Shown: positions 1 through 55,177, counted from the first letter of the whole stretch. The stretch is DNA of 63,179 nucleotides, filler included, from Collodictyon triciliatum (GCA_043381765.1; 11 parts of 11 records of this genome joined end to end with filler, not necessarily neighbours in it), one strand, 5' to 3'. A program made the numbers and translations. Notes: a model not told the origin generated them from the letters alone.

Positions 1-480
1 TTGTGTCGATGTTCCTTCCGTTCATGAAGCCAATCTGCTCTTTGGATATGAGTTTGTCAGCGATGGGTGATATGCGATTTCTGAGTAGCGTCGTAAATAT
101 CTTATAGTCGTTATTCAACAGCGATATTGGTCGCCAGTCTGCAAGGTTGCTCGAGTCTCCTTTCTTTGGTATCAGACGCACCGTGGCCTCTGTAAATCCT
201 TGCGGCAGGTCGCCACCAGACATGATTCCTTTCAGAAAAGTTACGAATGATGCCTTGACCTCATTAAAGAAAGCAGAGGATATTCCGTTGGGCAGCCTAT
301 CTGAACCTGGCGCCTTTTCGTTGTGCAGCGACTTGACCGCTTTCCACAATTTGCCTGCATCTATTGGTGCTATCATGCTGGCTGCTTGCGAGGGTGAAGC
401 CTTGGAGCAGTTTGTGGCAATAAACATGAGATTAGAAACATCATAGTCCCGTCTTGACCACATCTTTGAGAAGAAGACGT
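1..480 (-). mobile_element. Non-LTR retrotransposon (L1/Tx1-like) ORF2 reverse transcriptase fragment, running off the window edge
   Basis: Manual minus-strand translation gives ...KSLHNEKAPGSDRLPN...LPQGFTEATVRLIPKKGDSSNLADWRPISLLNNDYKIFTTLLRNRISPIADKLISKEQIGFMNGRNIDT. These are the classic KAPGxD, LIPKK, WRPISLLNxDYK and EQxGF motifs of LINE RT. The upstream boundary is approximate. Confidence 0.92.
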
Positions 481-966
481 GGGTGTTCTTTTTGTTGTTG
501 CGAGGTAATAAATGATGCATGTCCTCAGATGGTGTGCAGGACGAATACAAGGTCTTTTCTTTTTCCTTTCCTAGTCCAAAGAACCATTTCTTCATCTGCT
601 CAAAGTCTCGCAAGTATCTCGCTTCCCATTTTTCGCGGTATTTCTCTTCTTTTTTATTTTATAAACTTAATTCTTCACTACAAGGAGTTTATGATCAAAA
701 CCATAGCTATAAAAGAGAAAACACGCTGATACTTTACAATCATTCTCTTATGGGAGGCGAATCAAGTTTCTCTATCGACCTATCGTGTTGGTTATTATTT
801 ATATGATTGGAGAGAATGCCAGAGACAAAAAAAAAAGTATGTAAATCTGACATGAGTGAATCATCATATACTGACCAGTGGTAGCTAAATAGCATTCGCT
901 TTTAAAAAGAATTATTTTGAGGCATCTAATGCATAGATAGACAATAATGCTGAAAATCTTGATGGT

Positions 967-6029: not shown

Positions 6030-6129
6030 NNNNNNNNNNNNNNNNNNNNNNNNNNNNNNNNNNNNNNNNNNNNTTAATTAATTAANNNNNNNNNNNNNNN
6101 NNNNNNNNNNNNNNNNNNNNNNNNNNNNN
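6030..6129. other. Artificial contig linker (N44-TTAATTAATTAA-N44). Identical linkers lie at 12156-12255, 15930-16029, 22053-22152, 27334-27433, 33455-33554, 39571-39670, 45685-45784, 51796-51895 and 57905-58004
   Basis: An identical 100-nt structure with stops in all six frames recurs ten times. Most contig lengths decrease stepwise (6026, 6023, 6021, 6016, 6014, 6011, 6009), consistent with size-sorted concatenation. Confidence 0.98.
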
Positions 6130-12026: not shown

Positions 12027-12255
12027 GAGTTAACATCAATCATTGAAGAAGATATACTTATATTTGAATCGAATAAAGGAAATAAAAATGGCGATGCAAA
12101 TACATTTTAAAAAAGATATATAGCCTTTTTTTTAATCCATGTTATCATAACTTTCNNNNNNNNNNNNNNNNNNNNNNNNNNNNNNNNNNNNNNNNNNNNT
12201 TAATTAATTAANNNNNNNNNNNNNNNNNNNNNNNNNNNNNNNNNNNNNNNNNNNN

Positions 12256-19897: not shown

Positions 19898-21840
19898 ATG
19901 ACACGCCACTCACCCATCTTTGAGAGCTCCCTGTTTCCCACCGGATTCGGACTGAATCCATATTCCGAGAGCTTCTCGTACGGGGCCAACTCGACCAGCC
20001 CTTTCATACTGCCGGACATGTCTGCTGCATATGAGAGCGAGTACAGCAACACAGCAGCCGCAGCCTTTAAGTCATTCGAGCCACCCATGGGACACTACGC
20101 CAACCCGCCGGCAGCCCGGGCGTTCGGGGGCAAAGCAGGAGCTGCCCCGGCCCTCCTTCAGGTGCCGATCCTAGCGGAGCCGAAAGACGCGTTCGGGGGC
20201 TTTGCGGCCAAAAGAGGGATGGAAAAGCCACCGGGCAAAAACGCGGTGTCGGCAGCAGCGGGAGCAGGAGGAGGGGCATTGTCGAGCCTCGCAAAAGGCA
20301 GCGCCCCGACGCCCGGACTGGTGAACTGCAGCCGGGTGCGACCGGACAAGATCGGTAAGAAGACAAGGCGCCTCGCTCAAAGGGTTAAGATACATATGTA
20401 CTCTTTGCACTACCATCCCATCCCATCCCATCTCATCCCATATGATGTCATATGATGTCATGTCATATCATCCCGTCCCACTGTCCGTTGGACTGACGAC
20501 CCGCCCACGGCAGACTTTGCCCTATCGTTCCGGCGACACCTGGACCATGTCTCGCACGACCCGCGGCGCAACAACAAGGTGACGCTGCAGAAGATCTACG
20601 AGGAGTGGGTGGCCGGGATGACGGCGCCGCCCGTGCTGACGTACTCGGAGTCCCTCTTTGCCATGTACCTGTGCGGCGTCATCAAAGTGGTGGGTGGATA
20701 GCGGCGACCCGCGATTGGCGGTGCCATGGGCAGACCAAAGCCTCCTCCTCCTCCTCCTCCTGCCTCTAACATCCTTCTGCCCCCACCCACCTGCAGCACA
20801 AGAACGGGGACGTGACGTACAAGAGCCTCAGCACGTCCGCCGAGATCGTGGCCAGCAACTTCGCCAAGGTGGTTCCGCAGGAGCAGCACGTGGAGCTGAC
20901 GCACGTGCTGTGGCGGGCCATCGAGCGGCTGCACACGGCGCGGCAGCAGCCCAGCCTGGCGCACATCCGGCAGCAGATCGGCGACTTCCTCGGCACAAAG
21001 AAGCTGTCCGACACGGACTGGCGCAACCTGACCAACGTCCTCAACTGGTCCGACGACTTCCGCAACCACCCCGCCACCATCGACGGCGCCCCGGTGCAGG
21101 TCTACACGCTGGCTGCCCCCGCGTCGTCACCGTCGCCATCCGTGGCGCATCCAGTGGCCGGACTGGGCGGCCCAGTGAGCTCCGAGATCGGGCTGGTTGC
21201 GGCGGTGCGGGCGTTCATCCAGCCGGGGGCGGAGGGCGGGCACCTGGGCATCCGTGCGGGGCTGCAGCCTGCTGATGCGCGACGCCGCGACGAGTGGCTG
21301 AGTGCAAAGGCTGCGCTGCTGCTCAAGGCCGCCCCGGCCCCGCTCTGCGCCGTCCCCCACCACAGCCTCGTGCGCTACCTGCAGCTGATCCTGCAGGACC
21401 CCCACCCGGCCTGGGCTGCCACTGCCACTGCCACTGCCACTGCCACTGCCGCCGCCACCGCCACTGCCACCGCCGACCAGCCTCCCAACGCCCCCGGTGA
21501 TGATGGTGATGATGGTGATGATGATGATGATGACGACACCGGCTACAGCTACGGCTCCCTCGAGATGGCCGCCGCCTGCGCGCACTCCCCCGACGACCTG
21601 CGCCGCTCACGCTACTCCCACCAGCACCCCTACTCCTTCCCCCACCCGCCCGTCTCCGCCCCCCGTGCGCCCCTCGACAGCCTCTTCTCCGCCCCGCCCG
21701 ACCCCCTCGCCCTCGGCATTGGTCTCGGCCTCAACGCCCCCGCCTCTGCCCCCGCCGCACTCCCGCCCAGCAGCCTCAATGCGAACCCCATCTCCAGCCT
21801 CTTCAGCCTCCCCTCCATCTTCGGCTCCTCCGCCTTCTAG
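19898..21840 (+). CDS. Hypothetical GC-rich protein with a possible helical/winged-helix core, at least 3 exons; start uncertain
   Basis: Clean splicing (introns about 20354-20513 and 20690-20796) gives a continuous frame: PDKI|DFALSFRRHL...VTLQKIYEEW...CGVIKV|HKNGDVTY... It shows strong C/G-ending codon bias, and Ala/Thr and Asp homopolymers near the C-terminus. Confidence 0.6.
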
Positions 21841-22341
21841 ACTGCCCTCTGCCTCCAGTGCCGCATGGCTCTTCAATTCAATTCAATTTTTTTTTTAATA
21901 ATCATGATTATATATACATGTAAGTGTGTGTGTGTGGATGCGGATGGATTGGACGTGGCTGTTGAGTCTCATCCGCCCGCTATCCGCCCCGCCTCCCGTT
22001 CCTTTTCTTGCTGCGTGTTTTAATTCCTTTTTTTTTTTTTTTTGCGTGAATANNNNNNNNNNNNNNNNNNNNNNNNNNNNNNNNNNNNNNNNNNNNTTAA
22101 TTAATTAANNNNNNNNNNNNNNNNNNNNNNNNNNNNNNNNNNNNNNNNNNNNAAAAAATAAAAAAAAAAAAATGATTTAAAAAAAAAAATTTTTTTTTCC
22201 CTCTTTTCCAAAAAAAAAAAAAAAAAAAGGAAAAAACGAAACAGGTAAATGTATATTCGACACTGGACACAACTGGCTAAAATGAAATGTTTCCATCTTT
22301 CTCTCTTTCATGTTTTGCTTCCTTTCAAAATATAATGCTTA

Positions 22342-24379: not shown

Positions 24380-27187
24380 CTAGGAATGCTCCGTTCTGTA
24401 GTGGTCAAGGAGCGCCTCTTCCGAGTCGACCGAGCGCATGCAGAGAGTGCAGATGAAAGGGTGCGTCTCGAGGCTCGTCGGGTTGAAGTGCTCAGAGTCC
24501 AGATGGCTCGAAACCTGATGCTCTGTGCGGAACTCCATCCCGCATACAGGGCACAAGACCGGTCGGTCCAGAACATGCGAACTGGTTCGTCGGGTCAGTC
24601 CCGGGCGCGGGCGCGGTTGTGCTGCCTCGGCCGGTTGTGCTGCCTCGGCATGTTGTGCCTCTTTGGCTGCGTGTTCCTGCATGTTTGTTTGTTTGTTTGT
24701 TTGTTTGTTTGTTTGTTTGTTTGTTTGTTTGTTTGTTTGTTTGTTTGTTTGTTTGTTTGTTTGTTTGTTTGTTTGTTTGTTTGTTTGTTTGTTTGCATGT
24801 TTGTTTGTTTGCTCCCACCTCCATGTGCAGCTCCATGCGTTTGCGCAGAATATACTTTGAGCACTTAGGGCACTGCGTCGTCCGAGACCCACATACATTT
24901 TCGTGCGGCGTTGTGATTCCCAGGGATCGGTCTTCAGAGCTTACCAACCCTCTGCATACAATAAAGTCAGTTTTTTCGTCTGGGAAGAAATTTGTGCAAC
25001 TCGGTGGTGAGGATAACGATTAACATCAGGCCTTCTTTCTTTCTTTTTTAATCTTTCTTGTTAGATTCATGATGTTATGATGACGTTTTGCCAATAGGTT
25101 TTTTTTGAGAGGAATTCAAGAGCAGAAATTGCAATAGAAGACATAACAATAAATGCAGGTGTTCTATGAGAGACTTACGCTCCAGCCTCCTGCTCGGTGT
25201 TGCAGAAACGACAAACAATTATGCGAAGAGGACATTGGTCGACAACGTGAGCCTTCATATCTGAAAGTGTCAAAGACGCTCCACAACTACACAAGGACTC
25301 TTCGTGATAAATCGTACGGTGTTTCTGCAGAGACTTTTTTGTGACAGCCTGAGAGCAAATATCGCAATGTGTGTGGTTTTCCTTCTCCGAAGCACGAAGT
25401 AGGGCACCGCAACCTTGAAACATACACCTCGAGATGTTTCGACGGCAGAAAGCCTCATGCATGTGCACATTTGTGGACGGTACATATTGGTGACAATTCG
25501 AACATTTTGTTGTGTTCGGAGCCTCCTCTCCACTGCGCGATATGCTTTGTCCGTGTGATTCTTCATAGAGTATCTTAATATTGTACTTTGCAGGACTTGG
25601 CCCGCCCACAACAGATATGAATAGCATGGTTTGGTTTGAAATCTCTGAGTGGGGAATAACAAGCTTTTTAGAGCCTATCTCGTCCACGGACGCAAATGTA
25701 AAAATCATGCGGGTGGGGAAAAGGACGGGATATAGTCCTGCATAGATATCAGCATCTGCATCCACAGGTTTGGTAGGATCCGTTTCAGAGATGCTCAGGT
25801 ACACCACAAGGTAAGGATGGGTATTCTCTTTGTTCAGACGAACTTTGAAGTAGTGCGACTCACTGGGCCTTAAGTTGGAGTTAACAGAAGCCCCGATTTC
25901 AATCGGAACGGACTGTAGTTGGTTTGGTTTGGGCACATCCAGTTGCAGAGTTCCACCACCAGGAGTCATGTTGCCCAGATGAGGGATATTCGCCGTTGAC
26001 GTACTGTAGTCCAGAATTGATATGTTGATGTCCGCATTAATTGTAGAAACTGGGGTTCCTTCAGGCCTGTATTTTTTTTCCCCTTTCGTTATTATTTAGC
26101 AAAAGAAAAAGAAAAAGAAAAAGAAAAAAATAGATTCTAGGAGACAAAATGAAATAGAAGGTCCTTGAAACATCGAGATGACTCAATCATGTCTCTTACT
26201 TTACAGACTCCACCAATAAATCAATTCGGAAGGGAAGCATTCCCGGTTTACGAATGACCATAGGGAGGATGTCACCCGCAGAAATAATGGCGTATCTGAA
26301 CATAATCAAGTGGTCAATTATGGATATTGCATATTTTAACTAATATTTGACCAGCGAGTCCATATTTATTTCAAATCTCTTTGTTTGAGTGGTTGCATAT
26401 TTGTCGATGATGTGTATGACATGTAAAGAAAATAAGATTAATGGGGGAAATAGTAGTACCTCGATTGCAGCCATTTTTCTAGGAATACAAGAACATTTTG
26501 AACTGATTCATTAAAACCTGGTTGAAGAGGACGGAATTTTGCATCTGTCGCCTGTGGAACTTGCGCATGGACAAGAGTGAGCATAGGGAGAGACTCTTTT
26601 GAATTCACTCTTTTTTCGGCCAAACCCAAGCGAGACATGATTGTTTCTGGGAGGTAGACAACATCCTATATAGAGTCAAATATTGTATGCGATTTGGGTG
26701 AAATGTGTGGCGGTTGAATTTTCAGGCTTTTTTTGTTGTTGTTTGTTATGTGACCGATGATGCGATGCTACTACTTATTGTGTTTTTCATTTTCTTTTCA
26801 TAAAATTAGTGCTAGGAACCACAAACATCTTTTGAGAATCGATCAACACTTATGAATGCTTTTCTTTGCGTGGTGAGAATGTCTTCTCCGGACGGATAAA
26901 CCTGTGATAGGGAATGATACATAAAATCTAGACATTCGGATTACCATGCAACAAAAGAGAACAAAAGAGAACAAAAGAGAACAAAAGAGAACAAAAGAGA
27001 ACAAAAGAGAACAAGACAAAGAGGCTTTAGAAACCATGAAGAGGAGTGGGGATGGAGCCTGCATCTGGGTCAAATCTTCAAGCAAGGACCCGGGCAGCAC
27101 TGCACGGTCACAAAAGTCGTACTTTTCTTGCAGTTCAAGAGAGGGAGGCGAGTCATGCGTTGATGCACCAGACGAAGACTCACTCTC
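24380..27187 (-). CDS. UFD1-domain protein with TRAF/XAF1-like and C2H2 zinc fingers; first exon missing
   Basis: UFD1-like segments DRAVLPGSLL, DVVYLPETIM, KFRPLQPGF, LEKWLQSRYAIISAGD and STINADINI. These are followed by CxxC..HEAFC-type fingers and two C-terminal C2H2 fingers (CPVC...HLDSEH, CTLC...HYRTEH). Confidence 0.78.
24683..24810. repeat. (TTTG)n intronic microsatellite
   Basis: Tetramer array filling an intron of the UFD1-like gene. Confidence 0.9.
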
Positions 27188-27333: not shown

Positions 27334-27434
27334 NNNNNNNNNNNNNNNNNNNNNNNNNNNNNNNNNNNNNNNNNNNNTTAATTAATTAANNNNNNNNNNN
27401 NNNNNNNNNNNNNNNNNNNNNNNNNNNNNNNNNG

Positions 27435-31083: not shown

Positions 31084-32877
31084 CTAACCCTTCGAAGCAA
31101 CGGTTGTCATTGTTCTGGTGGGGTCGCAGAATCCAGCCTTATGTGGGTGTAGTGCTGTGCTAGTCGTTTCTGGGGACGTATTGCAATCCAGCAACTTAGA
31201 CTCTACTTGTAATTTCAAGTACGTGTACCATGTCAACCCCAGTATTGATAGCATAATGCCAATCGAATTTGTCCACGTGATACGATAATTAAACTGAAAG
31301 TATCCGACCAAAACCACAACGATGGTTTTAAAATGCCCCATGACATTATACCTGAAATGTGGAACCCAGAAATTGTCAAGTTCAGAAAATGGTCCAAATA
31401 GATGAATAATATGTAACCTGACATTAATATGAAATAGGGACAGCCAGCCACCAAGCAATAATATGTCTATAAACTCTTGCATAATGAATTTGAATCCAAT
31501 AAAAATAGAAAAGAAAAGAAATCTTACGTAAGGGGTCCAGTTAGGTCGATTAAGAAATAATTGCTCAAATTGAAAACGAAAGCCAGTAACGAGGAAAGAA
31601 AAATAGTGTACTATTTCAGAATTGGTTAGTATCTCGACAGTTTTTCTTTAAAAAGGAAGATAAAAACAATTGAAAAAAGTAACATTGGATTTGAAAGAGA
31701 CAGCCGTGCTTCTCAGTAGACAGAGAATTATACATGCATATGCTTTATAGAGAAATCATACAACAAGCGGGCTAGTAAAATCATAGTTTATCAATCCCTC
31801 CTCTCCAGTAACCTCATCAAATGTTGGTGTCAGAAGCATCATAAATAAAGTTGACAAGGGTGCTTGGTAGTAAAGAAGTTGCATACTGTTCACACCCAAC
31901 TGGCTGTGCTTCTTTGCTGTCAACTATGTACGTTTACAAAGTCATACAATTTGTGAATTCTGCTCCATTTTTTTTTTCATATCATGCAAGCGGTTTAAGT
32001 AATTGCAGCCAGGAAACATAATAAAAAAGAAAAGGAAAGGGAAAGGCAAAATAGGTTAAAGGGAACAATGAGTCAGAGAAACTATAGCACCTTATCCGTT
32101 GAATCAAATATAGGTGGAAGTGTAGAAGGGAAAGACGATTTCTTGACTATGAAATAACATGGTTCCAATAAACATAACATACAACTTGACTACCAGCTTT
32201 AGTAGCCTCTCCAAGAACGGCGACTATGAAGCCGGTGAAGTTGAGTTCTACATCCGTGAATGTCGCGAGACCGATTCCAGCGCATGCGCACACCAGAGAC
32301 AGTTTTAGTTGGGTGGAAAATCGCACCTTGTAGACTAAGCTCTGTAACAAAACAACAAGAGGAATGGTAAACGCTTTCATGACCTGATAAAATCCCACTG
32401 AGTTGTATTGCAAACTAAGATTGTTGAGGGTAACGAATAGGGCATGCATGCAGGAAAGGCCAAGTATGTCAGTACACTTCAAAGATTTCTTTTGAAGGAT
32501 CCCAAGAACCATGCATAATTTGAGACCAATCGAGCAGAAAACAAAATGAATCAAGGTGACAAACGTCCCTATTATCACACAACATAAATGATATTTCCTT
32601 ATTGCTAAGGTGGGCATATGAGGTGATATAATATAATCTCTACACAGGGGGTGCATCAATTTATTATTTTATTTTAGAAAAAAAAGCTTCCATTTCAGTT
32701 TTTTTTTTTTTTTTACCACACTATTACTGCTGAAATAAAAAAATTACCGAAATTAAAATCGTAGTAAAAGAAGATAGACTTGTTCACAGAGACCAAAAGG
32801 ATAGAGACCATGATGTTGAACATCATAGACACAGAAACCCTTAAAAAGTCTGTCGCAGGGTCTGTGTGAGTGAGCAT
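31084..32877 (-). CDS. Nucleotide-sugar transporter, SLC35E3/UXT-like (TPT family), 5 exons
   Basis: LVSVNK, FVTLIHF, LNNLSLQYNSVGFYQVMK, SMQLLYYQAP and TGPLT|YNVMGHFKT, with multiple TM segments. Confidence 0.88.
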
Positions 32878-33554
32878 TGAGATGATAAACGCTTGGTGCT
32901 CGAACCCTATCTACTGATTATTTCGGTTATATTGTTTGTTATTTGAACATGACAACTAAGCGACTTTTTTTTTTCAATGACAAAAGGATTGCAGTCACTT
33001 TGGTTTAGCATAAAATGTTTTTTTTCCCATCAAGTCCGTCATCCTGCAGCTGCTTTTCTCATTATCAGGTGTATAATTACAAAAGACCCTATTAAAACCA
33101 AACACTAAACTTCCAGCACTTCGTTTCTGGACATAAGCAACTAAAAGCAGTGTGTTTTCCCCCTTTGCAACAGTCTCATTTTTGACCTCTTTTACACATA
33201 GCTTACAGTTTATTGAGATAAAGCACATCCTTAGAAACCACCTTTGCTTCTTGGACAATAATGAGCTGCGGACGAGACAGTGGAAACCCCCTGGAATATG
33301 TGTTGGAGTTTTTGTGTTTTGAGTGGAAGGAAAGGAAAAGAAAAAAAGAAAAAAAGAAAAAAAGAAAAAAGAAAAAAAGAAAAAAAGAAAAAAAGAAAAA
33401 AAGAAAAAAAGAAAAAAGAAAAAAGAAAAAAAGAAAAAAAGAAAAAAAGAAAAANNNNNNNNNNNNNNNNNNNNNNNNNNNNNNNNNNNNNNNNNNNNTT
33501 AATTAATTAANNNNNNNNNNNNNNNNNNNNNNNNNNNNNNNNNNNNNNNNNNNN

Positions 33555-33558
33555 CTTC

Positions 33559-33625
<67 letters not shown>

Positions 33626-33657
33626 TTTTTCTTTCTTTCTTTCTTTTTTTCTTTTTT

Positions 33658-33739
<82 letters not shown>

Positions 33740-33825
33740 TTTCTTCCTTTCTTCCATTCTTCCTTTCTTCCTTTCTTCCTTTCTTCCTTTCTTCCTTTCT
33801 CCCTTTCTTCCTTTCTTCCTTTCTT
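33555..33825. repeat. (TTTC)n/(TTCC) pyrimidine microsatellite
   Basis: Tandem arrays at the contig start. Confidence 0.9.
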
Positions 33826-33969
33826 TTGCCCTACCTGTAGTTACTTTTATGTTTCTGCAACACTTTCTGGGCGCTTGTGTTACCACAATATATATTTAAA
33901 CAATAATAAAAAAATAATAATAATTAAATCTACCTCTTTAATCGCAGCTCGGAGCCAAGACGGAAACCG

Positions 33970-36900
33970 ATGGAACTTCCCGAGCTGGAGATCAACCCGG
34001 TTGTGCGGGATTTAAGCTATGCCTCCTTTCTCAACGAGCTGCAGCGCGACAGAAATGCCTTCGCAGATGTGAGCCACATGGTTCTGCGTTATGACGAGTA
34101 CCAGTCTAGCGACGAAGGTGAAGGTGCTTTCGAGGATCCTGACTTTGTGCAGGACATTCTGCCCGTCTTTACACCCGATCAGTTCCCCATGCTCGATGTG
34201 CTGGAGCTTAAAATGGATTTTGAGGATTTCATCTGCCCGAAACTTTGCTTCTCTAACGTCACCGTGATGGTCCTTAATGGGTCAAGCATAGATGCATTCT
34301 TTCGATACATCGAAGCAAATGCATTTCCTAGTGTCCAAAAGCTCATGCTCACGGACACCCGTGTTCAAGACTTGAGGATCGACATGTCTATGCTACCAAA
34401 CCTACAGGTTATACAGGTGGAGAGTGACTCAGAGAACTTGGTTGTCGAATTTGTCAACTGCGACATAGAAAAGACTCTCTTCAGCATGTCGTTTATCAAG
34501 AAAACAAGCGAAAATAATTCCTTCCCTCCCTCAATTACTTTGGTGCAATCTCCTAAGGTCCAAATGCTTGTCTTCAAAGGATACAATCCGTCGGAAACCT
34601 TAGGTGCTATGGACAGGAGCACCATTCTTTCTCTTTCCATTTCAGATGTGAATCTGGGCGAAGTACCTGATGTTGTGTTCACCGCTACACAAATGACGGA
34701 GCTCAATCTGGATAACACTCAATTAAAAGAGATATCTGGCAGAATCGAACTGCTGGAGAAACTCACTCGCCTGAACTTGGAGAGCAACACTGACCTGAAA
34801 AAACTCCCTGATTCCTTGGGTAAACTCGACAATATCACTTACCTCAACCTTACAAACACTGGAGTCAGTAGTGCATCCTCTAAAATTTGGGACTGCCGTG
34901 TGAGAAGGCGCACCATTCTTACACTGAGTAGTTTAGGAAGAGGTGAAATCATATTTCCAAATATGCTTGTGCATGTTAAAAAATTGGATATTCGCTCGTT
35001 TGGACTGCGTCGTTTAGATGACTCGATTACTGCGATGAGCAGCCTCGAAATGATTAATCTATCCGATAACCTTTTTGACTCTGTTCCTATGATTCTGGAT
35101 GCAATGCCAAACTTGAAAAGGATTGACATGGAAAGGAATCCCTTCTCTATGCTTATTGAATACCATTCAAAAACAGATTTTGATCAAAAATTGGATGATT
35201 CGCAAAAGAATACTGATACGAAAGAGGATGAAATAAATGACGATACAGTCTATCGTGATTGCTTCCTCTCCCCGCGCTTTTGTTCGAATAGTGATTTGAA
35301 GATAAAGTTATCTTTTTCTCAAAAACCATCCCATTCTGGAGAGATGTGCACAAAAACTCTAAGCGATATTTGCTTGGTATTCAACAGATTTAATTCAGGA
35401 ATTTCTAAGGCCATCCACCTCATTGAAATATACAATAAGGATGTGACTTTCAACCAAAATGAAGTGAAGGCATTTGAACGATTCATCATAAATACATTGA
35501 AATCTGAAAGTTCTGCCACCCAACCCGACACCCCAACAAATCTATTGACTTTGAGTCCCGAAATTGATAGTCTCCTCGATGCCAATTTCATCAACGTCGC
35601 CAACGAAGCTCATTGCACAACATTCATTAATAACTCGGCAATAGTGAAGAAAACAGAGAGATTGTGGACATCAGATATCGATATCACTGCAGCTACGTTG
35701 ACGCAAAACAACTTGCAATCTATATTTGCGACTGGGTACATCCGAGGTGCATTTCTGTGGCTTGAAATGTTTTTGCGCCAATTTCCAAGATTTAAAAAAT
35801 CTCCAAGAGGGAAATTCATCCTTTCCTTTGTAATGCACCTTTTCTTTGTCTGCGTGCTATACAAAATTACTTTACTGGACATTAAAAATAGTTTCATTCA
35901 CGCTCATTTTGTTGGAAGTCAAATGTCAGAGAGCGAGCATGTTCAACCAAAAGTATTTGAAAACGTTGACAAGTTTTGGGATTACTTCCGTCAAGACTTT
36001 ATCCCTAGTATCTACAGCAAAGGTCAATATGAAGCGGTCGGCCATCTCCCCGACAAGGTAAATATTGTCGCAATCCCGGCACGTCTTCGTGTTCTCCGCG
36101 TCTTCGATGTTCCATGTAGTTCTTTTCCGGTGATGTATGCCCATTACAATATATCGAATTATCAATGTTACCCACCTCTTGATTATGATAATGAATGCAA
36201 AGAAGCCTACGGAAAAGGAGATCAAAAGTACACGTGGGTGAGCTCGACCGAGCTATCAGGATTCGAAATTCAAGGAAGAGCTGCCCTTTACCACGGGGGT
36301 GGTTATCATGTCGTCCTAGCCCACAATTTAGAGGATGCTTTGAAAACGCTCACGGAATTGAAAGAAAATGGGTATATTGATTACCAAACACGAGGCTTAA
36401 TTGTTGACTACATCATAGAAAACGAGGCGACAGAGTTCTTTTCATTCATGTCAACCTTATTCGAGTTTCTTCCTACTGGAGACATTGAAACCACGACAAT
36501 ATCCCAAGTTATATCCCAAACGTCCGTATCTCGCATGTCTGACGTTTGGTCTCTGATTTACAACACCATTCTTTTTTCATTTACGCTTGGACACATCATC
36601 CACGAGTCTTTTCAGGTAATGGCCATGGGTTTCGGATACTTTGGAGAACTTGCAAACTGGATAGACTTGTTTATGATTGGGCTTTTAACAGTACAAAATT
36701 GGATTTGGCTTGTCATGGCCTTTAACGTCCCCTCGTCTAACTTGGTTACTTATGACCCAGGACGCTACCTGACCAGTATGTTTTGCTTGGCACAGATGCA
36801 AGAGAGCAAATTATGGTATTTGTCCCTGCTTAATATATTCGCAGGTCTCCGTGTGTTTCCGTACTTCCTCATCCACCCCAACATAGGACTTTTAATTTTC

Positions 36901-39296
36901 CAGATCGCTTTGATGGTCAAATCACTGTTTTATTTCATGTTGATCATCGTGATGATTTTCTTTGTGTCTTCGCTCCCATTTCTATCCATTTTTGGAACAC
37001 ATAATCAGTCCTCGTCGTCCATATCCTCTGCAATTGCCACGATGGCACCCAGCATACTTGACGATTTTGATCAAGATAGCCTATACTCCAAGTTTCTGCT
37101 GGGCAAGTGTGTGGTATTTATTTTCTTGATAACGATATCTGTGATTATCAAGAACTACAGTATCGCGCATATGTCAGATGTTGCAACCAATATCATGGTT
37201 AGGTCGAAAGAAATTTACATCAGCCGTTTCACAAAGGAGGTCTGGACCTACACTTATTCGTATTCCCCACCACCTCTGAATGTTTTTGGGCTACTGTCAC
37301 ACAATGTCCGCTTCTATTATACTTCGCTGGGTCAAAAATTCATTGATGACGTATTTTCAATGATTCACTTCCGCTTTCGCACGTATCACTCTCTCGTCGA
37401 TCACACCTGTGAGTTCAAGGAGAGACTGGGGTATTCTATTGTCATTCCTGGCTCACAACTGATAAAGTACTATTTACTGGAGGCAGACCGTTATATTTTT
37501 TGGAACATTGCAACTGTTCTATTTGGCATTGGAGAATTCATCGAGCCATACATCAATAAAGTCCTTATGTTACTTCTCCAGTTTGTAGCCAAAATCGTGG
37601 GTGTTCAAAGTCTCGGTTTTGAGCATAATCAAAAGCGCGTACTTATTCGGATGGCACCTCTGACGTATTCCATATTCCGTTTCTTTTGGTTTATTGGCTT
37701 CTTTGTGTACCCTTTCTCTTATTTGTATGACGTTTTAACAGTTAAGAAAAGGGTATGTTTATTGAATTTCACTTAATATGTATCAAATGATTATGTAATC
37801 TCATTTGTGTTGAAACGAAACAATTGTTGTTCTTTTTCTCATTCTCTGCAAGAGTTATTGTGCTTTATGTATTTATGTCATGCCTTTCATATTAAAAATG
37901 AATGCAAATTGTTAAAACAAATATGCTTCTCTATTTAGTATCTAAAGGGAAGCAAAGGAGTAAAATCATTAGCCAGTAAATTTTATAATTCTCTTTCAAG
38001 ATTTTTCTCATACATGCACTTTCTCTCTGTAGAATATACACTATCATACCATATCTTTATTTTGAATAATCCTTGATAACCAGTCGATTTCAATCCTGAA
38101 GTAAAACCATGTCTATTTATTTATTTATTTATTTTTTCACGACTTTTTTTTTGGTAGCCACAAAGTTCCTGTCGCCTGTCCAGAACCCTGACGCATCCAT
38201 CCTCAGCGAATACAGCACTACAATCCTAGACACAGAATATCAACAGTTCTATGCAGAAATCTATCTTATCAAAACAAAAAGCAGCCATTTTTACATAGAG
38301 GATGCAACTACAAATACCCCTATAGCCATATTGCGCATTATACCTGATGAAATTAGTACCGAACTTGGAGAGGAGGCATATGACAGAACCATGACACATA
38401 CAATCTCTGTGCCAGACCGAACAAACATCGGGGTTGGAGTAAACTTTGAGGACAGGACATACTACATCACTCGCAACGGCATTTGCATCTACTGCAAAGA
38501 CATCCCATCAAGTAGTCGCACCAAACTCCAAATCCGTGCGACCACGACAGGGTTTGCCATGATTACAACAGACCCTGAAATGCAGCAATACATCACCCCT
38601 CAAATCACAGCAGTGGAGAGTGAGCTCGTTAGACACGTACCTGTGGGCGGCATCGCAGAGAGGCGCCTAGTCTACGGCAACTACATCATCAACACCGACC
38701 AATATCAAGACCCCAAGTTTGTGGGGGCATCTTTCCTTGTCTCAAAAGGCCATACAGGTGATGACGAGGGACAAGATACGTCTCAAAGACAACAGCAGCC
38801 AGACCTGCTTACGCTTGTGACTCGACGATTTCTTTGCGAGTTCCGTGTTCGCTTCTTTGCTGTCCAGGCATTGCACCCGAGTATTATCCAAAACGCCACC
38901 ACTGTTGGCTTCTATGAGAGCTTCACCGGCTCTGTAGACAAGCAGACAACACTCTTCCAGGTTCGAATGGAAATGAACGAAGAGTTGGTTTCCCGCTATG
39001 GAACAACCGGAGCCAAAGAGGCCATTGATGATGGAGCAGTCCGAACGAAGGCAACAAACATCACCAACATTGTATGTGGAGTGGATATCATCTTTGGCGT
39101 CTTCTTTTTCTATGCTTTCGGTAGAGACAAGAAACTTTTGGCGCACAACAGGATTCCCTTTAGCCCAGCCGATGATATCTTCCTTACTCCGTTTATCCAC
39201 TCGCCAACCAATGCAGAAATCACCGAGTGCAGCTACTGCGAAGACGCCCCTGATTCATCCGAGGAGACCATCCGTGATATCATCATGTCGGCCTAG
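33970..39296 (+). CDS. LRR - polycystin-2/TRPP-type cation channel - SPRY-like protein, about 1650 aa (exons 33970-37752, 37939-37975, 38158-39296)
   Basis: N-terminal LRRs (LTRLNLESNTDLKKLPDSLGKLDNITYLNL); a polycystin TOP domain (PARLRVLRV, GRAALYHGGGY, LKENGYIDYQTRGLIVDY); TM helices (YFGELANWIDL, GLRVFPYF); and a C-terminal IGVGVNFEDRTYYITRNG (SPRY-like). An upstream exon is possible. Confidence 0.8.
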
Positions 39297-39475
39297 TCCT
39301 GCGCTCTTGCGCACCCTTTCATGATTCTCCTTCATCTCCGCCCTCCTCGAACCCCCTGCAAGGGCGGTGAGACGTGCTGCCCACTTACTCAAAGCCTGTC
39401 TTTCTCTGAATAAAACAGAGCCTAACCCAGCCGTGTCTTATTTGTGCTTGGAGTGGATGTATTTCATGAGATTCC

Positions 39476-39476
<1 letters not shown>

Positions 39477-39570
<94 letters not shown>
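39477..39570. repeat. (TTA)n microsatellite at contig end
   Basis: Perfect trinucleotide array. Confidence 0.9.
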
Positions 39571-39749
39571 NNNNNNNNNNNNNNNNNNNNNNNNNNNNNN
39601 NNNNNNNNNNNNNNTTAATTAATTAANNNNNNNNNNNNNNNNNNNNNNNNNNNNNNNNNNNNNNNNNNNNAATAATAATAGTAATAATAATAGTAATAAT
39701 AATAGTAATAATAATAGTAATAATAATAGTAATAATAATAGTAATAATA

Positions 39750-45600: not shown

Positions 45601-45784
45601 TTTCTTTCTTTTTCATTCTTTTCTTTCTTTTTCTTTCTTTTTCTTTCTTTTTCTTTCTTTTTCTTTCTTTTTCTTTCTTTTTCTNNNNNNNNNNNNNNNN
45701 NNNNNNNNNNNNNNNNNNNNNNNNNNNNTTAATTAATTAANNNNNNNNNNNNNNNNNNNNNNNNNNNNNNNNNNNNNNNNNNNN

Positions 45785-47375: not shown

Positions 47376-49211
47376 ATGGCTCAGGTAAGAGCACCCACTC
47401 AACGAACTTACCACTTCAATCTATCACAATAAAAGAAATTTTCTCACCTGCTGAACAGCCCCCCCTCCCCTCCACGACCGAACACCCCTCCACTTGCATC
47501 CCAACCTTACTCATCCCGTCATAACCAACACGACCAACACACAGTTCGAGGGAGACGGCAAGCGCCGCGTCCACTTCTTCTGGTTCCTCCTGTACCAGAT
47601 TGCCATGATCATCATCTTCCGCCTGTGCACGACATACGAAGAGCTGAACTACAACGACTACATGGCCGTCTACCGCGACTACATCCACTACTCGCACATC
47701 ATCCTGGCGATCGCCGGCTACCTGTTCATCTACGGCACCTCGGTACCTCTCCTTCTGCCCCAACTGCCTGCCCCTCCTCCCCCAAAGCCCCCACAGACCC
47801 GCCCACTAACCCTGCGCCTTGCACCGGACAGACCAAGGGCGGCTACACCAACATCCTCAACGGCTTCTTCCTGACGGGCGCCGTGCTGCAGTGGGGCCTG
47901 CTGATCTTTGAGTTCTGGAAGCGCGTGTCGAACGACGACTGGAACACGGACCTCGTGCTGGGGATCAACCACATGCTGTACGGATCATACGCGGCGGTGG
48001 CGGTGCTGATCACGGCGTCGATTGTGAGCGGCTACGCCTCGACGGTGCAGCTGTTCCACCTTGCGGGCGTGGAGGTTGTGCTGTACGGGCTCAACATCTA
48101 CATCAACTACCGCCAGCTCAACTCGCCGGCGTGGGAGCACCACCTGTGGGTGCATCTGTTTGGGGCGGTCTACGGGCTGGGCGCGCTGGTGGGGCTGAAG
48201 CGCACGGTGAGCGCGGAGGCGGCGGGCAGTGGCCACGAGGCGTCGCACCTCAGCAACGCGCTGGGGCTGGTGGGCCTTGCGCTGGTCTTTGTCTTCTTCC
48301 CCTCGTACAACGCCGCGCTGCACCACGTGCAGAGCCAGTCGATCGTCGTGGCCAACACGTACCTGGCCCTGGCCTCGTCCGCCGTCGTCTCGTTCTTCAT
48401 GAGCGTTGTCCTGCAGGACGGCACCCTCGACATTGCGCGCATCCGCAACAGCACCCTGGCCGCCGGCGTCGCCCTGTCCTCGTCCATCGCCAACCTCGAC
48501 GGCCCGGCCGCCGCTGCCGGCGTGGGCCTCGTCACCGCCATTGCCGCCGCCGCCCTCTACCGCCTCGACGCCAAGCTGGGCGACTCGTCCCACGCCTTCT
48601 CGACACACTTCACCGGCGCCCTGGTCGGCGCCGTCGGCACCATGGTCTCGCTGGCCCACCACCACTACGAGGCTAACTTCTTTGGCAACCGCTTCACCGA
48701 CGTCTACCCCTCGGCCGGCGACGCCGCCTCCAACCACGTCGCCTCCTTCTTCATCACCATCGGCATCGCCCTCCTCGCCGGCCTCATCTCGGGCTTCCTC
48801 TTTGCCGCAAAGCCCTGGTTCCCCAAGGCCAACGACTCCGCCAACGTCGACGCCGACTACATCGCCGACCAGTACGACACCCCCGCCCCCGCCCCCGCCC
48901 CCAAGACCCGCGAGATCGTCCTCCCGCCCCCGGCCCCCATCTACGTCGCCCCGACCCCTGTGCCTGTCGCCCCCGTCCCCGTCCCCGCCCCCGTCCCCGT
49001 CGTCACCCGCACCATCCTCGCCGGCTACGGCCCCGAGCAGACTGCCACGTGGCTCCGCTCCGTCGGCCTCGTCCACTCCGCCGCCCAGGTCACCAAGGAC
49101 AACATCACCGGCCAGGACGTCCTTGACTCCCCCGCCGACAACCTCAACAACTACTTTGGGGTCGAGGATGGCTCCCGCATCTGGTCAGAGATCGGCCACA
49201 TGGCCCCCTAA
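47376..49211 (+). CDS. Rh-type ammonium transporter family protein with Pro-rich linker and C-terminal SAM-like domain, 528 aa (exons 47376-47384, 47545-47742, 47832-49211)
   Basis: Rh-like motifs VLQWGLL, AVAVLIT, WVHLFGAVYG, FFPSYNA, NTYLALASS, IRNSTLAAGVA and THFTGALVG. The tail YGPEQTATWLRSVGL...DNITGQDVL...DGSRIWSEI fits a SAM domain. Confidence 0.85.
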
Positions 49212-52200
49212 GTTATCTCTCCCTCTCCCTCCCCCACCGCTGTCTCTGTTTGCCTCTCTCTCTCTCTCTCCCTCTCCGCTCCTTCATCTCAGACACCCTG
49301 TGGCGCGAATACACTCCGCCCCCATCGGGTGCTGGACACACTGCCAATCTAAGCTCGTCGCATGAGCAACTCCTCCACTCAACCCAACCTTGCGTGTCTG
49401 TCTGTCTGTTTGTCGGCGGCGCCGGGAGAGTCTTGTGGGACAATAAACAGAACAGTCCTCACTTGCTCCGGCTTCCCCGCCCTCTCAAACGCACACACCT
49501 CGACCCACACGACACAGCCACACTCCGCCCCGCGTCACCCAAGAACCAATCTGGAAACTAAAATTAAACCTTACTCGCATGTACACGGCTTGCTGGTGAC
49601 AGTGAGCAAAAGCTAGACACATATGTGGAATCTATGCCTTTTGATTCGGCTTTCTCATTGAAATATTCATATTATACTGCGCCCGTGGATTTATTTTCAA
49701 AAACACAAATTTCCATGGATCAGTTGTGCATGCGCGTCCGTTTTTTTCAAAATTGGCCTGTTATGTGGTTTATTTTTTTCCCTCTCTATTTTGCTATATT
49801 TCCGGCCGCTTGTGGCGTGCGGAAATTGCTCGGAAGGGCGGCTTCTGAGGGCGGAAGGTCTGCGACAAAAATGGCAACAATGTGGCTGTGGTGTTTGTGC
49901 TTCCAGCTTTTTTCCAAAGCTTCTAGCCCCTTCCGCACAACCTTGGCGCGCGAGCCAAAGATATATACGCGGCGTGATGAACGGGGCTGGGATGAATGCG
50001 TGTGTATATTGGACTGCCCTCTAGTGGCTTATATTCTCTTGCACCAAAGCAAATGGCTCATACAAGAAGCAACCAGCGGACATTCTGTTGTCTCTGCCTG
50101 CTCCATCGCACAATGTTTGATTGGTGTCGAAGCTTTGCATGGAGGAGAGCAGATATTCCTTTCATTGAATCGGTGCTTTTTGGGTTCAAATGAGACCTTG
50201 AATGATTCTATACAACCCCTAACTTTTTTCATCCCTCGTTCTTGCTCGATGGTGGCTAATTTCATCATCATCGTCATCATACCGCACAATAGCTGCTTTT
50301 TGCTTTTTGCTTTTGCTTTTTGCTTTTGCTTTTGCTTTTACCCCTTTGCTATCTTCCAAATAGTACCTTATAGATCCGTCCCAATCGCCCGCAGCACTCG
50401 CACATCAAAATTACGTTTTTTCTTTTCTTCCAAAATGTTTCAATGACTTGCCCTCTGCCATTTGTATTCACCCGTCCCATCTCTCTCTCATCCTCCTTTT
50501 TTTTTTTCCCCTTCTTTCTCTTTTCTTTTTCGTTTGGGGCAAACCTCTTTAAAAATTGTCGTGTAAATTTCCCTTTGCCTTTTTGGCGGGTCTCTCACAC
50601 CACACCATCCATTCGTCCGCCTGGAATAAAATCAAACTCCGACAATAGAAAGGCCCCGCTTAGACTTCTTTGTGTGTGTGTGATTCAATCGAACCAACAA
50701 CGCCATTGTCCACATCCAAGAGAGGAGTATTCATCAACTACCCGTTAATGAAAAAGAAACAAGGCCTTCAATAACTACACTCTTCTGCTTCTTATTACTT
50801 TGTTCTTTCTTTTGTGTATATTTGCTATTTCTTGGCCTCCGCCTTTGTAACACATCCGCCTCATACCATACAAAAAAAACTTGTGTACCATCCTCAATTC
50901 AACCGCAGCCTTTTTTCTTCATTATCGCTGGCAGATGTCCCACATCAATCCATCAATCCATATGTTTTTTTTTTATTATACTTTATTTATTTTTACCTTG
51001 AACATCATAAAACCTGCTCATTCTTTCCTCCCTTCTCTTGTCCCTTACTTTTACATCCACCTTTTAGAGGTGTTACGAAAAATGAGATGCAGAGTCAGCA
51101 GATCCTTCAGCTCTTGTTTTGTCCGCACATCCTTTCTTGCACATTTCTTTCCTTCTTCAATCGCTCTTCTCCTGCTCTGCCATTCTTCTCCATAATCTAC
51201 TTTTCATTTTCTTCCTTTTCTTCTTTTCTTCCTTCCCTTTTGTCTTCCTCCCTCTCTCTCCCCTCGTGCGTGGATTTTATTTTAATTTGAATCATATCAC
51301 ACCAACCGCAGATTCTTTTTTTTTTTCCTTTCCTTTTGGCTCAGATTGCCTCATCCAAACACCCATTTATTCTCGCTTCTTTTTTCAATCGTGTCGTGAT
51401 TCAAATCCGCAAATACTGGGCATTTCGTGATGTATGATCTGATGATTCTCGTCATCCAAATCACTGTGATGGCTGTTTTGGCGATTACTTCGATTTTTTT
51501 AATCCAGATTGGAGCGAACTGGATTCGTCCATCGCTCAATCCTTTGCGCGGACATGGGCTTCCAGGGCGATGGAGTTGCACGCTCACCCATGCCTATCCG
51601 CTTTGACAATATGTGACTTCAGAAAAATTCCATACTCACTTTAAAGCAACAAGCCCTGATCTGCCCCTTTCTCGCACTGTTATCGTCTATTTCATAAGCC
51701 ATTCATACTTGGTCATGACAACACAGATATGGCATTGCAAAAAAAAAGAAAAAAGAAAAAAGAAAAAAGAAAAAAGAAAAAAGAAAAAAGAAAAANNNNN
51801 NNNNNNNNNNNNNNNNNNNNNNNNNNNNNNNNNNNNNNNTTAATTAATTAANNNNNNNNNNNNNNNNNNNNNNNNNNNNNNNNNNNNNNNNNNNNCTCTT
51901 TTCTCTCTCTTTTCTCTCTCTTTTCTCTCTCTTTTCTCTCTCTTTTCTCTCTCTTTTCTCTCTCTTTTCTCTCTCTTTTCTCTCTCTTTTCTCTCTTTTT
52001 ATACAGACTAAATGATTGATTTAATTACAAAGCCTTCCCTTTATTAGCCAGATTCTAGAAGTTTAGGACATTATATGAAAGATTCCCAAGCCGAGCCTTC
52101 GTCTCACGCCCCCGAAACGTGTTAGGTGATAACCCGTACCACAAACCACCGAGCCGAATGCCTCGCAGATTCAATCACATCCCTCTTTTTTTGATCTGGC

Positions 52201-53553: not shown

Positions 53554-54550
53554 CTCCTGTTCTTAGAAACTCTGTATTGCGCCGCCCCTTCTTTCAATCC
53601 CTCCCTCCCTCGGTAACTTGTACGATTATCGCCTACCCCTTTCCGCTTTTCCTGCCCTTCTGCTTCTTAACATGGACAACCAAAGATTTTGCCGCGTACC
53701 CCGTCCTCCTGAACCGCTATCATTATCCCAAAAATTAAAACCGTGACACCCTACCGATGAAGCGGTGCGCCCAGGCAGGTTACATTAAATCCCCGAGTGT
53801 TTAGAAACTTTGATGCATCGCCCCTGTGGTGGGGTGTGAAGCTCAATCTTCATCTCTCGTTCCACCATTGTTTGTCGTTAAGCGAAAAAAAAAGAACCCT
53901 CTCGAAAACACAAATAGCAGTTCACGCATGCCAAAAAAGGTCGCAAATATTTGTACCGTACTTACATTACTGTTGAGATCTTACGACACATGACTTCTGC
54001 TTGTTTTCTGGTTCGCACGCAAGAACTTTCCTTTGGGGGCTCAATATCAGAATCGGGCATCAGGCGACGGTTTTCTCGGTACTTTCTGAAAACCCGAATA
54101 AGCAAGGTATCAATCGGGAGGAGTCTCTCATATTTGATGGCACCCAAATAGGTATCGAACCTTAACAAGAAACTTGGTCTGTCGAACAACGAGGAATTAC
54201 GGCGGAATTCTAGAAACAAGCTGGAAGGATGGTCGTCACCTGGGTCGGAAGTACTCCAGAATCCAAGGAATTTATCAAGAACGGGTTGGGCAAAGGAATA
54301 ACCATGGGTGCAGAATTCCGCTGGAAATCCAGAAATATAGAAGAAGGTCTGCAATACAGATTAAGCACCCTGGTGTTGTGACAAAGCACAGACGGTATAA
54401 GAACTATGTGCGACTAGCTTGAGGTGATTCACTTACACTCACAAAAAACAAGCTTCTGACCCACACAACCAAAGACCGCCGTGTTGCAGCAGGACGTCAT
54501 CTTCAAGACACCGTCAAACACCCAGCGACGGAATCAAACTCCCACCAACC

Positions 54551-55177
54551 ATGCCGAAACCATCACTCTTCTGTCAGCAAGTGTCGTCTTACTTGCAGTC
54601 TATCACTCAGCGCCAACCCCTTCAACAAACTGCTTTTGATGTTGTCGTCCCCTACAACAACCAGTCTCCGGCCCCGTTCACGATGGTAGAGGACGCCACA
54701 CAGCTTCTCCAGAGGACTGAACACTACGACGTGGTTTCTACCACCGTCATTGTCAACGCTGTGATCTACACACACAGATTTCTTCGCATGTCACAGACTC
54801 AACTCACCGCAGACAATGTAGTCCCCGTACTAACAGTCGCCATGTGTGTGGCAAACAAGTACCATGAGGATATTCCTTACGACAACCGAACCTTCTCACA
54901 ACTATCTGGAATCCACGCCGAAGTACTGTCGAAGCTGGAGCTCCACTTTCTTGCGGCCCTCCGCTTTCGCCTGAGCATCGACAGAGAGAACTTCCAGCAG
55001 CTCTATGATGCTTTCAGCACCCCACCCCGGACCAAGAGCTATCAAGACAGCCTCCATGCAGTCTGTGTTCCCTCACCATCGGTTCAGTCCCTGGGCTCTC
55101 CAGAGCCGAAGCCCCGCTCATACACTCTTGCCCGATCCGGCACACCCAACCGTCAGAGGAACGCTACTTCCTGCTGA
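54551..55177 (+). CDS. Pho80/PCL-like cyclin, copy 2, intronless
   Basis: Paralogous to copy 1: VANKYHEDIPYDNRTFSQLSGI...LELHFLAALRFRL. Confidence 0.88.
   Translation: MPKPSLFCQQVSSYLQSITQRQPLQQTAFDVVVPYNNQSPAPFTMVEDATQLLQRTEHYDVVSTTVIVNAVIYTHRFLRMSQTQLTADNVVPVLTVAMCVANKYHEDIPYDNRTFSQLSGIHAEVLSKLELHFLAALRFRLSIDRENFQQLYDAFSTPPRTKSYQDSLHAVCVPSPSVQSLGSPEPKPRSYTLARSGTPNRQRNATSC

Follow-up and report, generated by a model that had tools for sequence, protein, structure and literature searches.

The window analyzed here is a 63,179-nucleotide (nt) stretch of DNA from Collodictyon triciliatum (GCA_043381765.1), and its segment 33970-39296 is best read as one three-exon gene encoding a 1652-residue subunit of a TRPP-type TRP cation channel, presumably tetrameric, with cytosolic leucine-rich repeats (LRRs) and a TRP domain. 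We place the probability of this reading at about 0.75. TRP channels are conventionally split into group 1, which carries a TRP domain and arrays of repeats in the cytosol, and group 2 (polycystins and mucolipins), with a large extracellular domain between transmembrane helices S1 and S2. Sequence comparison suggests that the window gene and seven paralogs from Diphylleia rotans form a clade that mixes hallmarks of group 2 (the TOP domain) and group 1 (the TRP domain and the linker ahead of S1). A first-pass annotation, made from the sequence alone, had proposed a TRP channel outside the described subfamilies; this proposal was borne out in the form of a polycystin-type channel with a TRP domain, for which no published description was found.

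The features of the gene are as follows, with (+) denoting the plus strand:

33970-37752 (+): exon 1 (residues 1-1261), with ATG at 33970, 1261 codons, phase 0; carries the LRRs, linker, channel, TRP domain and two hydrophobic helices
34252-35154 (+): LRR region, SHOC2/ROCO-like (residues ~95-395), by Pfam and PDB matches; aligns with the LRRs of the Diphylleia relatives
35341-35802 (+): helical pre-S1 linker (residues 458-611), by a conserved A..A..F[LI]...W motif and AlphaFold2 (AF2) helices
35803-35886 (+): S1 helix (residues 612-639), hydropathy peak 2.09; AF2 helix at model residues 147-174
35959-36495 (+): polycystin (TOP) domain in the S1-S2 loop (residues 664-842, ~190 residues), by Pfam PF20519; the model superposes on PKD2
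36544-37161 (+): S2-S6 and pore (residues 859-1064), by alignments to PKD2L1 and PKD2 in the PDB and AF2 helices
37057-37071 (+): filter position LDDFD (residues 1030-1034), by the pore string
37192-37287 (+): TRP domain (residues ~1075-1106), with box-1-like Tyr1083 and box-2 P-P-P-L-N at residues 1100-1104
37549-37707 (+): two hydrophobic helices (residues 1194-1217 and 1228-1246), by hydropathy; position conserved in the Diphylleia relatives
37753-37938 (+): intron 1, GT..AG, 186 nt; spliced out in complementary DNA (cDNA) contig X1 record 1
37939-37975 (+): exon 2, a microexon of 37 nt, lying between two joints in X1 record 1
37976-38157 (+): intron 2, GT..AG, 182 nt; spliced out in X1 record 1
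38158-39296 (+): exon 3 (residues 1274-1652, stop at 39294-39296), an open frame encoding a beta-rich C-terminal region; joined in X1 record 1
38211-38639 (+): SPRY-like unit 1, degenerate, assigned by position (collinear with the Pfam SPRY of Diphylleia proteins P0011-P0014); predicted local distance difference test (pLDDT) score of the model <50
38709-39293 (+): SPRY-like unit 2, a predicted ConA-like beta-sandwich, by VIA fold matches; model pLDDT 40-65

The channel core was examined by sequence searches and structure prediction. Pfam PF20519 (Polycystin_dom) scored 65.6 bits (cut-off 23.6; E 5.7e-18), and phmmer searches of PDB sequences matched PKD2L1 over residues 657-1092 (E 1.1e-18) and PKD2 over residues 617-1074 (E 8.9e-17). 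Hydropathy placed S2-S6 between residues 859 and 1068, and the TOP domain holds three Cys and one N-x-S sequon. The AF2 model of residues 466-1261, built from a 105-sequence alignment with no templates, reached a mean pLDDT of 78.3 and a predicted TM score of 0.75. Block-mean pLDDT was at least 81 over most of model residues 80-640, with dips to 51-78 at 221-230 and 451-470; the model was not trusted past residue ~650, where the tail of the input alignments was smeared. PKD2 was the top Foldseek match of this core model (E 9e-21, TM 0.84 normalised to target), and a VIA comparison with PKD2 gave a Z score of 29.5 and a root-mean-square deviation of 2.9 over 454 aligned residues (model residues 145-619). 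These analyses corroborated the PKD2-type TOP domain and six-helix channel of the first-pass annotation. GPS, REJ and PLAT, the polycystin-1 families, were absent from the Pfam scan at E<=1, and a single transmembrane helix precedes the TOP domain, unlike the 11-helix polycystin-1, which has a signal peptide and extracellular LRRs. The window protein keeps the TOP cysteine that is conserved in the family, as well as the S6 Asn and the TRP motif. By homology it is a pore subunit of polycystin type with an acidic filter, and it may permit cation permeation.

The sequence that follows S6 in the window protein reads SPPPLNVF. In all eight clade members the corresponding P-x-P-x-N motif starts at the S6 Asn plus exactly 38 residues; within 70 residues it was found in 0 of 76 other polycystins with a recognisable S6 pattern (143 examined), sister sequences included. 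A profile of S6 and the post-S6 region (A7; 88 positions, five clade members) was searched against the PDB and gave 219 matches. The best 60 of these 219 were all group-1 TRPs (E 1.4e-10 to 2.9e-5), with no polycystin among them. Matches to this profile included Inactive (1.4e-10), NOMPC (1e-9), the Chlamydomonas TRP-like structure 6pw4 (crTRP1; 7.3e-9), a TRPM-like protein (1.8e-7) and the TRPM2 chanzyme (2e-7), as well as Nanchung, TRPV2/3/4 and TRPM4. In the profile alignment the P-x-P-x-N of the clade falls on 'PSPLN' of NOMPC, 'PPFN' of 6pw4 and the proline segment of TRPM, and the conserved Tyr of the clade falls on the box-1 Trp of group-1 TRPs. In a passage of PMC8539334 the TRP domain of TRPC, TRPM and TRPN is described as bounded by box 1 (EWKFAR) at one end and box 2 (LPPPFN) at the other, and a passage of PMC6056229 describes a long S1-S2 domain as a hallmark of group-2 TRPs.

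We also compared a three-member family profile (window residues 466-1261, P0059 and P0014) with a control profile built from three canonical PKD2-like proteins. Against the PDB the family profile matched PKD2L1 (5.9e-61), the TRPM2 chanzyme (1.6e-19), TRPC6 (2e-17), TRPC3 (2.3e-15), TRPC4 (7.9e-13) and TRPC5 (2.9e-11). Its alignments ended on TRPC6/3/5/4 at chain residues 789/762/727/724, whereas those of the PKD2 control (E 4e-12 to 1e-7) ended at 739/682/632/628; the TRPC alignments were 50-96 residues longer with the family profile than with the control, which stops at S6. TRPM2 was absent among the 60 matches listed for the control. A passage of PMC7017149 locates TRPC4 E648 and E649 directly after the TRP helix, and the extra aligned stretch therefore spans that helix. 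P0059 on its own matched group-1 TRPs in the PDB over S5-S6 only. Taken together, these comparisons show that the post-S6 motif is, as judged from sequence, a genuine TRP domain in which Tyr replaces Trp in box 1. Its likeness to the proline-rich LPPPFN motif, lacking in canonical TRPP, had been remarked on at first reading and was thereby substantiated.

The region immediately ahead of S1 may also resemble that of group-1 channels. AF2 predicted a helical bundle ahead of S1, with pLDDT 78-94 over residues ~535-610. In VIA comparisons, alignments with PKD2 structures begin no earlier than model residue ~145; those with TRPV1, TRPV3, TRPC4/5/6 and TRPM2 extend from model residues 1-69 through 632-657 (Z 16.5-17.0). 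For TRPC5 (9m4w_A), 357 residues aligned over model 18..641; at most 288 of these fit S1-S6 and the post-S6 region outside the TOP domain, so that at least ~69 precede S1. A six-member pre-S1 profile searched against the PDB at E<=10 gave 29 matches, all of which (29/29) were to TRPM8, TRPM5, TRPM2, TRPC1 or TRPM-like chains at the linker just before S1, with E values of only 0.21-5.5. Pfam TRP_2 was not found in the Diphylleia relatives at E<=10, the pre-S1 and post-S6 pieces matched nothing relevant in Pfam at E<=10, and an ESM Atlas search with the pre-S1 region of P0014 gave no usable match. The pre-S1 linker is probably of the group-1 (TRPM/TRPC) type.

Upstream of the linker, Pfam identified LRR_8 at residues ~225-395 (47.3 bits against a cut-off of 27, E 1.7e-12) and LRR_4 (43.2 bits, E 4.1e-11). 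Among PDB sequences this region matched SHOC-2, a cytosolic scaffold (E 2.5e-13, residues 227-394), and LRR chains of LRRC8 were also among the matches. A word-index homologue search with the whole exon 1 protein gave eight matches, all LRR-only with 12-14% coverage and uninformative on the channel; the best LRR matches in this search were ROCO-type proteins. Hydropathy revealed no hydrophobic segment in residues 1-611, and the N-terminus is acidic, so that a signal peptide is absent. No LRRNT or LRRCT cysteine-rich cap appeared in the Pfam scan of the protein. The TOP domain lies outside the cell in solved polycystin structures, and S1 is all that separates it from the LRRs, which are therefore placed in the cytosol. 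These data show ~9-12 SHOC2-like leucine-rich repeats at a cytosolic N-terminus, in agreement with the early view of N-terminal LRRs that lack a signal peptide.

To identify relatives, 1.84 billion representative sequences were searched with HMMER. This search revealed 941 polycystin-like proteins, five of them with E<=1e-30; identity was at most 32% among the best 150 of the 941 listed and 25% for the best-scoring match. The six best matches and P0059 are all Diphylleia rotans transcriptome proteins (EukProt EP00002; P0011-P0016, P0059). Pfam detected LRR, Polycystin_dom and PKD_channel in 6/6 full-length Diphylleia relatives, and SPRY above the cut-off in four of the six (P0011-P0014; 37-78 bits versus 26.3); SPRY was below the cut-off in P0015 (17.4 bits) and absent in P0164. 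P0162, an isoform of P0015, carries a RasGEF domain (E 4e-16, residues 2026-2201) C-terminal of its SPRY region and so represents a channel-GEF fusion. The window protein is collinear with the Diphylleia relatives from its first residues to its C-terminus, and the Diphylleia paralogs are 26-36% identical among themselves. In a FastTree phylogeny (105 sequences aligned over 471 columns, with every row kept) the window protein and the seven Diphylleia proteins formed one clade (support 0.983), with the window protein sister to the other seven (0.979) and unnamed metagenome proteins as the sister group of the clade. The architecture sought among protist proteins is conserved in a small clade, which apart from the window gene was seen only as the seven Diphylleia rotans paralogs. 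P0165 (2480 residues), which shares a 90% cluster with P0129 of the sister group, has ankyrin and LRR arrays ahead of its polycystin channel (Ank_2 E 2.9e-35, LRR_6 E 1e-12) and no P-x-P-x-N after S6; large cytosolic repeat arrays on protist polycystin channels may be commoner than known. No description of a polycystin channel with LRR, SPRY or TRP domain was found in full-text literature, a corpus that covers few subscription journals, and the keyword-matched passages of two recent surveys (PMC12749960; bioRxiv 10.64898/2026.06.15.732245) mention no such polycystin channel.

The gene is confined to one contig of the window (33555-39570, ~6 kb), which has microsatellites at its ends. Its expression was analyzed with coded RNA runs labelled freshwater metatranscriptome, a label that is the sole pointer to habitat. 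Pieces from two of these runs map to parts of exons 1 and 3, and 12 of 13 pieces have at least 95% identity to the window; RNA cover is incomplete, with none at 36132-36503 for example, and uncovered stretches carry no weight either way. The RNA contig pieces are collinear with exon 1, no piece has a joint within it, and the donor of exon 1 is the consensus AG/GTATGT with GT at 37753. The first 3.78 kb, an open frame from 33970 to 37752, is accordingly a single exon, as had been annotated. One contig, X1 record 1 (1869 nt, depth 8.6), splices 37143-37752, 37939-37975 and 38158-39355; one loose end of this contig presumably derives from a template-switch oligo, which it resembles, and we regard the contig as cDNA for this reason. 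Joining 37752 directly to 38158 creates a 1-nt frame mismatch, and the exon 1 frame reaches a stop at 37774; the 37-nt microexon restores the reading frame across exons 1-3. The joined coding sequence of 4959 nt encodes 1652 residues with a single, terminal stop. The first-pass annotation had called for an RNA check of the 38158-39296 exon: its union with exon 1 was upheld, and its direct joining was replaced by a path through a microexon that had been overlooked. A tblastn search identified no second copy of the channel gene elsewhere in the window. The channel gene is real, intact and expressed, and has three exons. Separately, one contig of run X2 (37834-39024) retains intron 2 and reads straight across it and the microexon; it differs from the window at 13 bases and by 12 gap letters, and represents pre-mRNA or else DNA of a strain that is related or slightly different.

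A number of results weigh against our reading of the locus, and these are given here together with the alternative explanations. With phmmer, the window protein's own pre-S1 and post-S6 pieces each had 0 matches in the PDB, every pre-S1 profile match is non-significant when taken alone (E >=0.21), and in the AF2 model S6 runs on into the post-S6 helix as a single DSSP helix (model residues 570-630). An ordinary PKD2 ortholog plus accessory domains, with a proline motif that arose by lineage-specific convergence and is unrelated to the TRP domain, would account for the unmatched post-S6 piece, for PKD2 and PKD2L1 as the best sequence and fold matches, and for the placement of the clade among polycystin-like sequences in the tree. 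We consider this explanation improbable, as it is opposed by the residue-by-residue alignment of boxes 1 and 2 with group-1 TRPs, to the exclusion of PKD2 from the top of the S6/post-S6 profile search (best 60 of 219), by the halt of the canonical PKD2 profile at S6 on the same TRPC chains, and by the invariant spacing of the motif in 8/8 members.

In the C-terminal region, no Pfam SPRY (PF00622) match was detected in exon 3 at E<=1 or, with exon 3 halves, at E<=10. A hidden Markov model (HMM) of the Diphylleia C-termini scored 4.8 bits on exon 3 compared with 4.2 for the best of 1000 shuffles, which was judged no better than shuffles, and an hhalign comparison of SPRY with exon 3 gave E 0.05, with 3/200 shuffles as good. 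The AF2 model of exon 3, built with six relatives, had a mean pLDDT of 40.6, and its best fold match was galectin-2 (Z 12.3), not SPRY. In the wide VIA search, residues 184-378 of this low-confidence model also matched MID1 B30.2 (Z 11.9, 140 aligned) as well as eight other TRIM B30.2 domains, RanBPM SPRY and RyR SPRY1 (Z 9.5), these further B30.2 and SPRY chains spanning Z 9.5-10.6; the input alignment held SPRY-bearing relatives, and the fold match is therefore not independent evidence. A phmmer search of the PDB with exon 3 gave two matches, both with E>=0.9, and the ESM Atlas returned low recognition, with viral and unnamed clusters. A scan of metagenome contigs with exon 3 gave 62 pattern matches, none of which was confirmed, and when exon 3 was aligned globally with entire relatives the sequence was smeared, so that this alignment was discarded. 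By position and fold class, exon 3 likely comprises two eroded SPRY-like units. The claim of one or two such units thus received no direct support from Pfam and little from the HMM and hhalign comparisons, and it persists through four of the six full-length relatives, which carry Pfam SPRY at the same position.

Between S6 and this region lie the two hydrophobic helices, and the further hydrophobic segments noticed earlier were thus recovered, at positions kept in the relatives. AF2 also draws helices in the 1194-1246 region, at pLDDT <65. The RasGEF domain behind the SPRY region of P0162 led us to take the C-terminus as cytosolic, in which case the hydrophobic pair would be a hairpin; probably both helices cross the membrane or neither does. 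A different topology would follow if the C-terminal sandwich were a galectin-type lectin outside the cell, sensing extracellular glycans, with only one post-S6 helix crossing the membrane. Galectin-2 is the top fold match, galectins make up most of the first 20 rows, and the hydropathy and AF2 results would fit more than one count of membrane crossings past S6. However, the exon 3 model that yields these matches is of low confidence, the relatives carry Pfam SPRY at this place and SPRY has the same general sandwich fold, RasGEF, a cytosolic enzyme module, continues one paralog isoform, and the two hydrophobic segments are conserved together. An extracellular lectin is for these reasons given little credence.

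Other adverse results concern the integrity of the channel and of its transcript. Pfam Ion_trans fell below its cut-off (21.9 versus 25 bits, residues 862-1071), PKD_channel was not reported for the window protein, and identity to the Diphylleia relatives is just 21-25% over residues 470-1110. Asp takes the place of the filter Gly that polycystins have in their LGD consensus (LGDFD), and conduction is therefore not assured. The splice joints are known from one contig of one run, and that contig carries an extra, frame-shifting T in a run of five T at 37282, within the PPPLNVF codons; the extra T is absent from run X3 and stems from a homopolymer error or represents an allele. One could picture a decaying or non-conducting paralog, perhaps surviving only as a regulatory subunit, and the standing of the window protein as the most divergent clade member, its missing Pfam PKD_channel and SPRY matches and its LDD filter would all fit such a paralog. 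Against this stand a 4959-nt frame that is intact over three exons and is transcribed and spliced, the retention of the conserved TOP cysteine, S6 Asn and TRP motif, and high AF2 confidence in the core, and we see only a slim chance that the gene is such a paralog. That exon 38158-39296 is a separate downstream gene, as the stop at 37774 and the 1-nt mismatch on direct joining might suggest, can be dismissed, since one cDNA contig links both parts in frame via the 37-nt microexon, which refutes a separate gene unless the contig is chimeric, and the relatives are collinear over their full length.

We return to a TRPP-type channel with cytosolic LRRs and a TRP domain, for which the following mechanism may be proposed. 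The hydrophobic helix pair would return the chain to the cytosol, and the TRP domain would link the LRR and SPRY modules in the cytosol mechanically to the S6 gate. Movements of the assembly of LRRs, linker and SPRY units could then be transmitted to the gate via the TRP domain, and the binding of cytosolic partners could tune the entry of Ca2+ and other cations. Proteins of small-GTPase pathways are speculative candidates for such partners, made plausible by the SHOC2-like LRRs, the ROCO-type best LRR matches and the RasGEF-fused paralog. The pathogen-sensor role suggested at first reading gained no specific support.

The presence of hallmarks of both TRP groups on one polypeptide offers a concrete test case for the divergence of the groups, and a natural construct with which to probe the coupling of cytosolic modules to a polycystin pore by a TRP helix. 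The literature searched yielded no TRP channel that bears LRRs or SPRY units in the cytosol. If the LRR and SPRY modules bind signalling proteins, they would represent a new way of tying ion flux to the state of the cell interior, in a eukaryotic branch that has been little studied. It is possible, and we advance this tentatively, that the clade keeps an ancestral TRP layout, in which the TRP domain and a TRPM/TRPC-type linker predate the origin of the TOP domain and canonical animal PKD2 and TRPML lost both later; through the TRP helix kept in these protists, LRR and SPRY modules that may respond to the state of Ras-family GTPases would be able to gate a polycystin pore. Were this so, the split between group 1 and group 2 would reflect loss and not separate origins, and the coupling of LRR and SPRY modules to the pore would be a mode not described for any TRP channel.

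The remainder of the window was also surveyed. The window consists of 11 contigs (~3.7-6.0 kb each), mostly in descending order of length, which are joined by spacers and are not contiguous genome. The 10 spacers are identical, each comprising 44 N, TTAATTAATTAA and 44 N, and lie at the following positions:

6030-6129, 12156-12255, 15930-16029, 22053-22152 and 27334-27433: spacers
33455-33554, 39571-39670, 45685-45784, 51796-51895 and 57905-58004: spacers

Because the contigs are joined in this way, the gene neighbourhood cannot be read from the window, and the other open reading frames in it are uninformative on the surroundings of the channel gene. Those on other contigs include:

2-658, minus strand: reverse transcriptase
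1971-2585, minus strand: LRR
25175-26095, minus strand: XAF1-like zinc finger
32147-32668, minus strand: triose-phosphate-transporter family
54428-55177, plus strand: cyclin

The G+C content is 62-65% at 20001-22000 and 48001-50000 and 31-50% in the rest of the window. Long open reading frames in these G+C-rich stretches (20770-21840 and 47433-49211) had no Pfam match.

Among known channels, the Diphylleia rotans relatives are the closest in layout: LRRs, linker, TOP domain, channel, TRP motif, hydrophobic pair and SPRY region are collinear with those of the window protein. In contrast to these relatives, the SPRY region of the window protein is eroded, with no Pfam SPRY match compared with 4/6 there. 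Polycystin-2 and PKD2L1, both group-2 TRPs, have in common with it the S1-S6 core, the TOP domain in the S1-S2 loop and an acidic filter at the same position. Unlike PKD2 and PKD2L1, the window protein has a TRP domain, a predicted folded pre-S1 linker, N-terminal LRRs, two extra hydrophobic helices and SPRY-like units; it has an LDD and not an LGD filter, and no EF-hand or coiled coil was found in it. With the group-1 TRPs (TRPN/NOMPC, TRPM, TRPC, TRPV and Chlamydomonas TRP1) it shares box 1 and a proline-rich box 2 (E 1e-10 to 1e-7), a predicted linker and post-S6 helix that superpose on theirs (Z ~16.5-17), and a large cytosolic repeat domain ahead of the channel. It differs from them in its ~190-residue TOP domain, where the S1-S2 loop of group 1 is short and the extramembrane mass is confined to the cytosol, in having LRRs instead of ankyrin repeats or MHR and a box-1 Tyr instead of Trp, and in a transmembrane core that is closer to PKD2. 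Although the pore of LRRC8 is unrelated to that of the window channel and the pore of the ryanodine receptor only distantly related, LRRC8/VRAC, with its LRRs, and the ryanodine receptor, with its SPRY domains, provide a functional analogy, as both carry cytosolic interaction modules on a pore-forming subunit.

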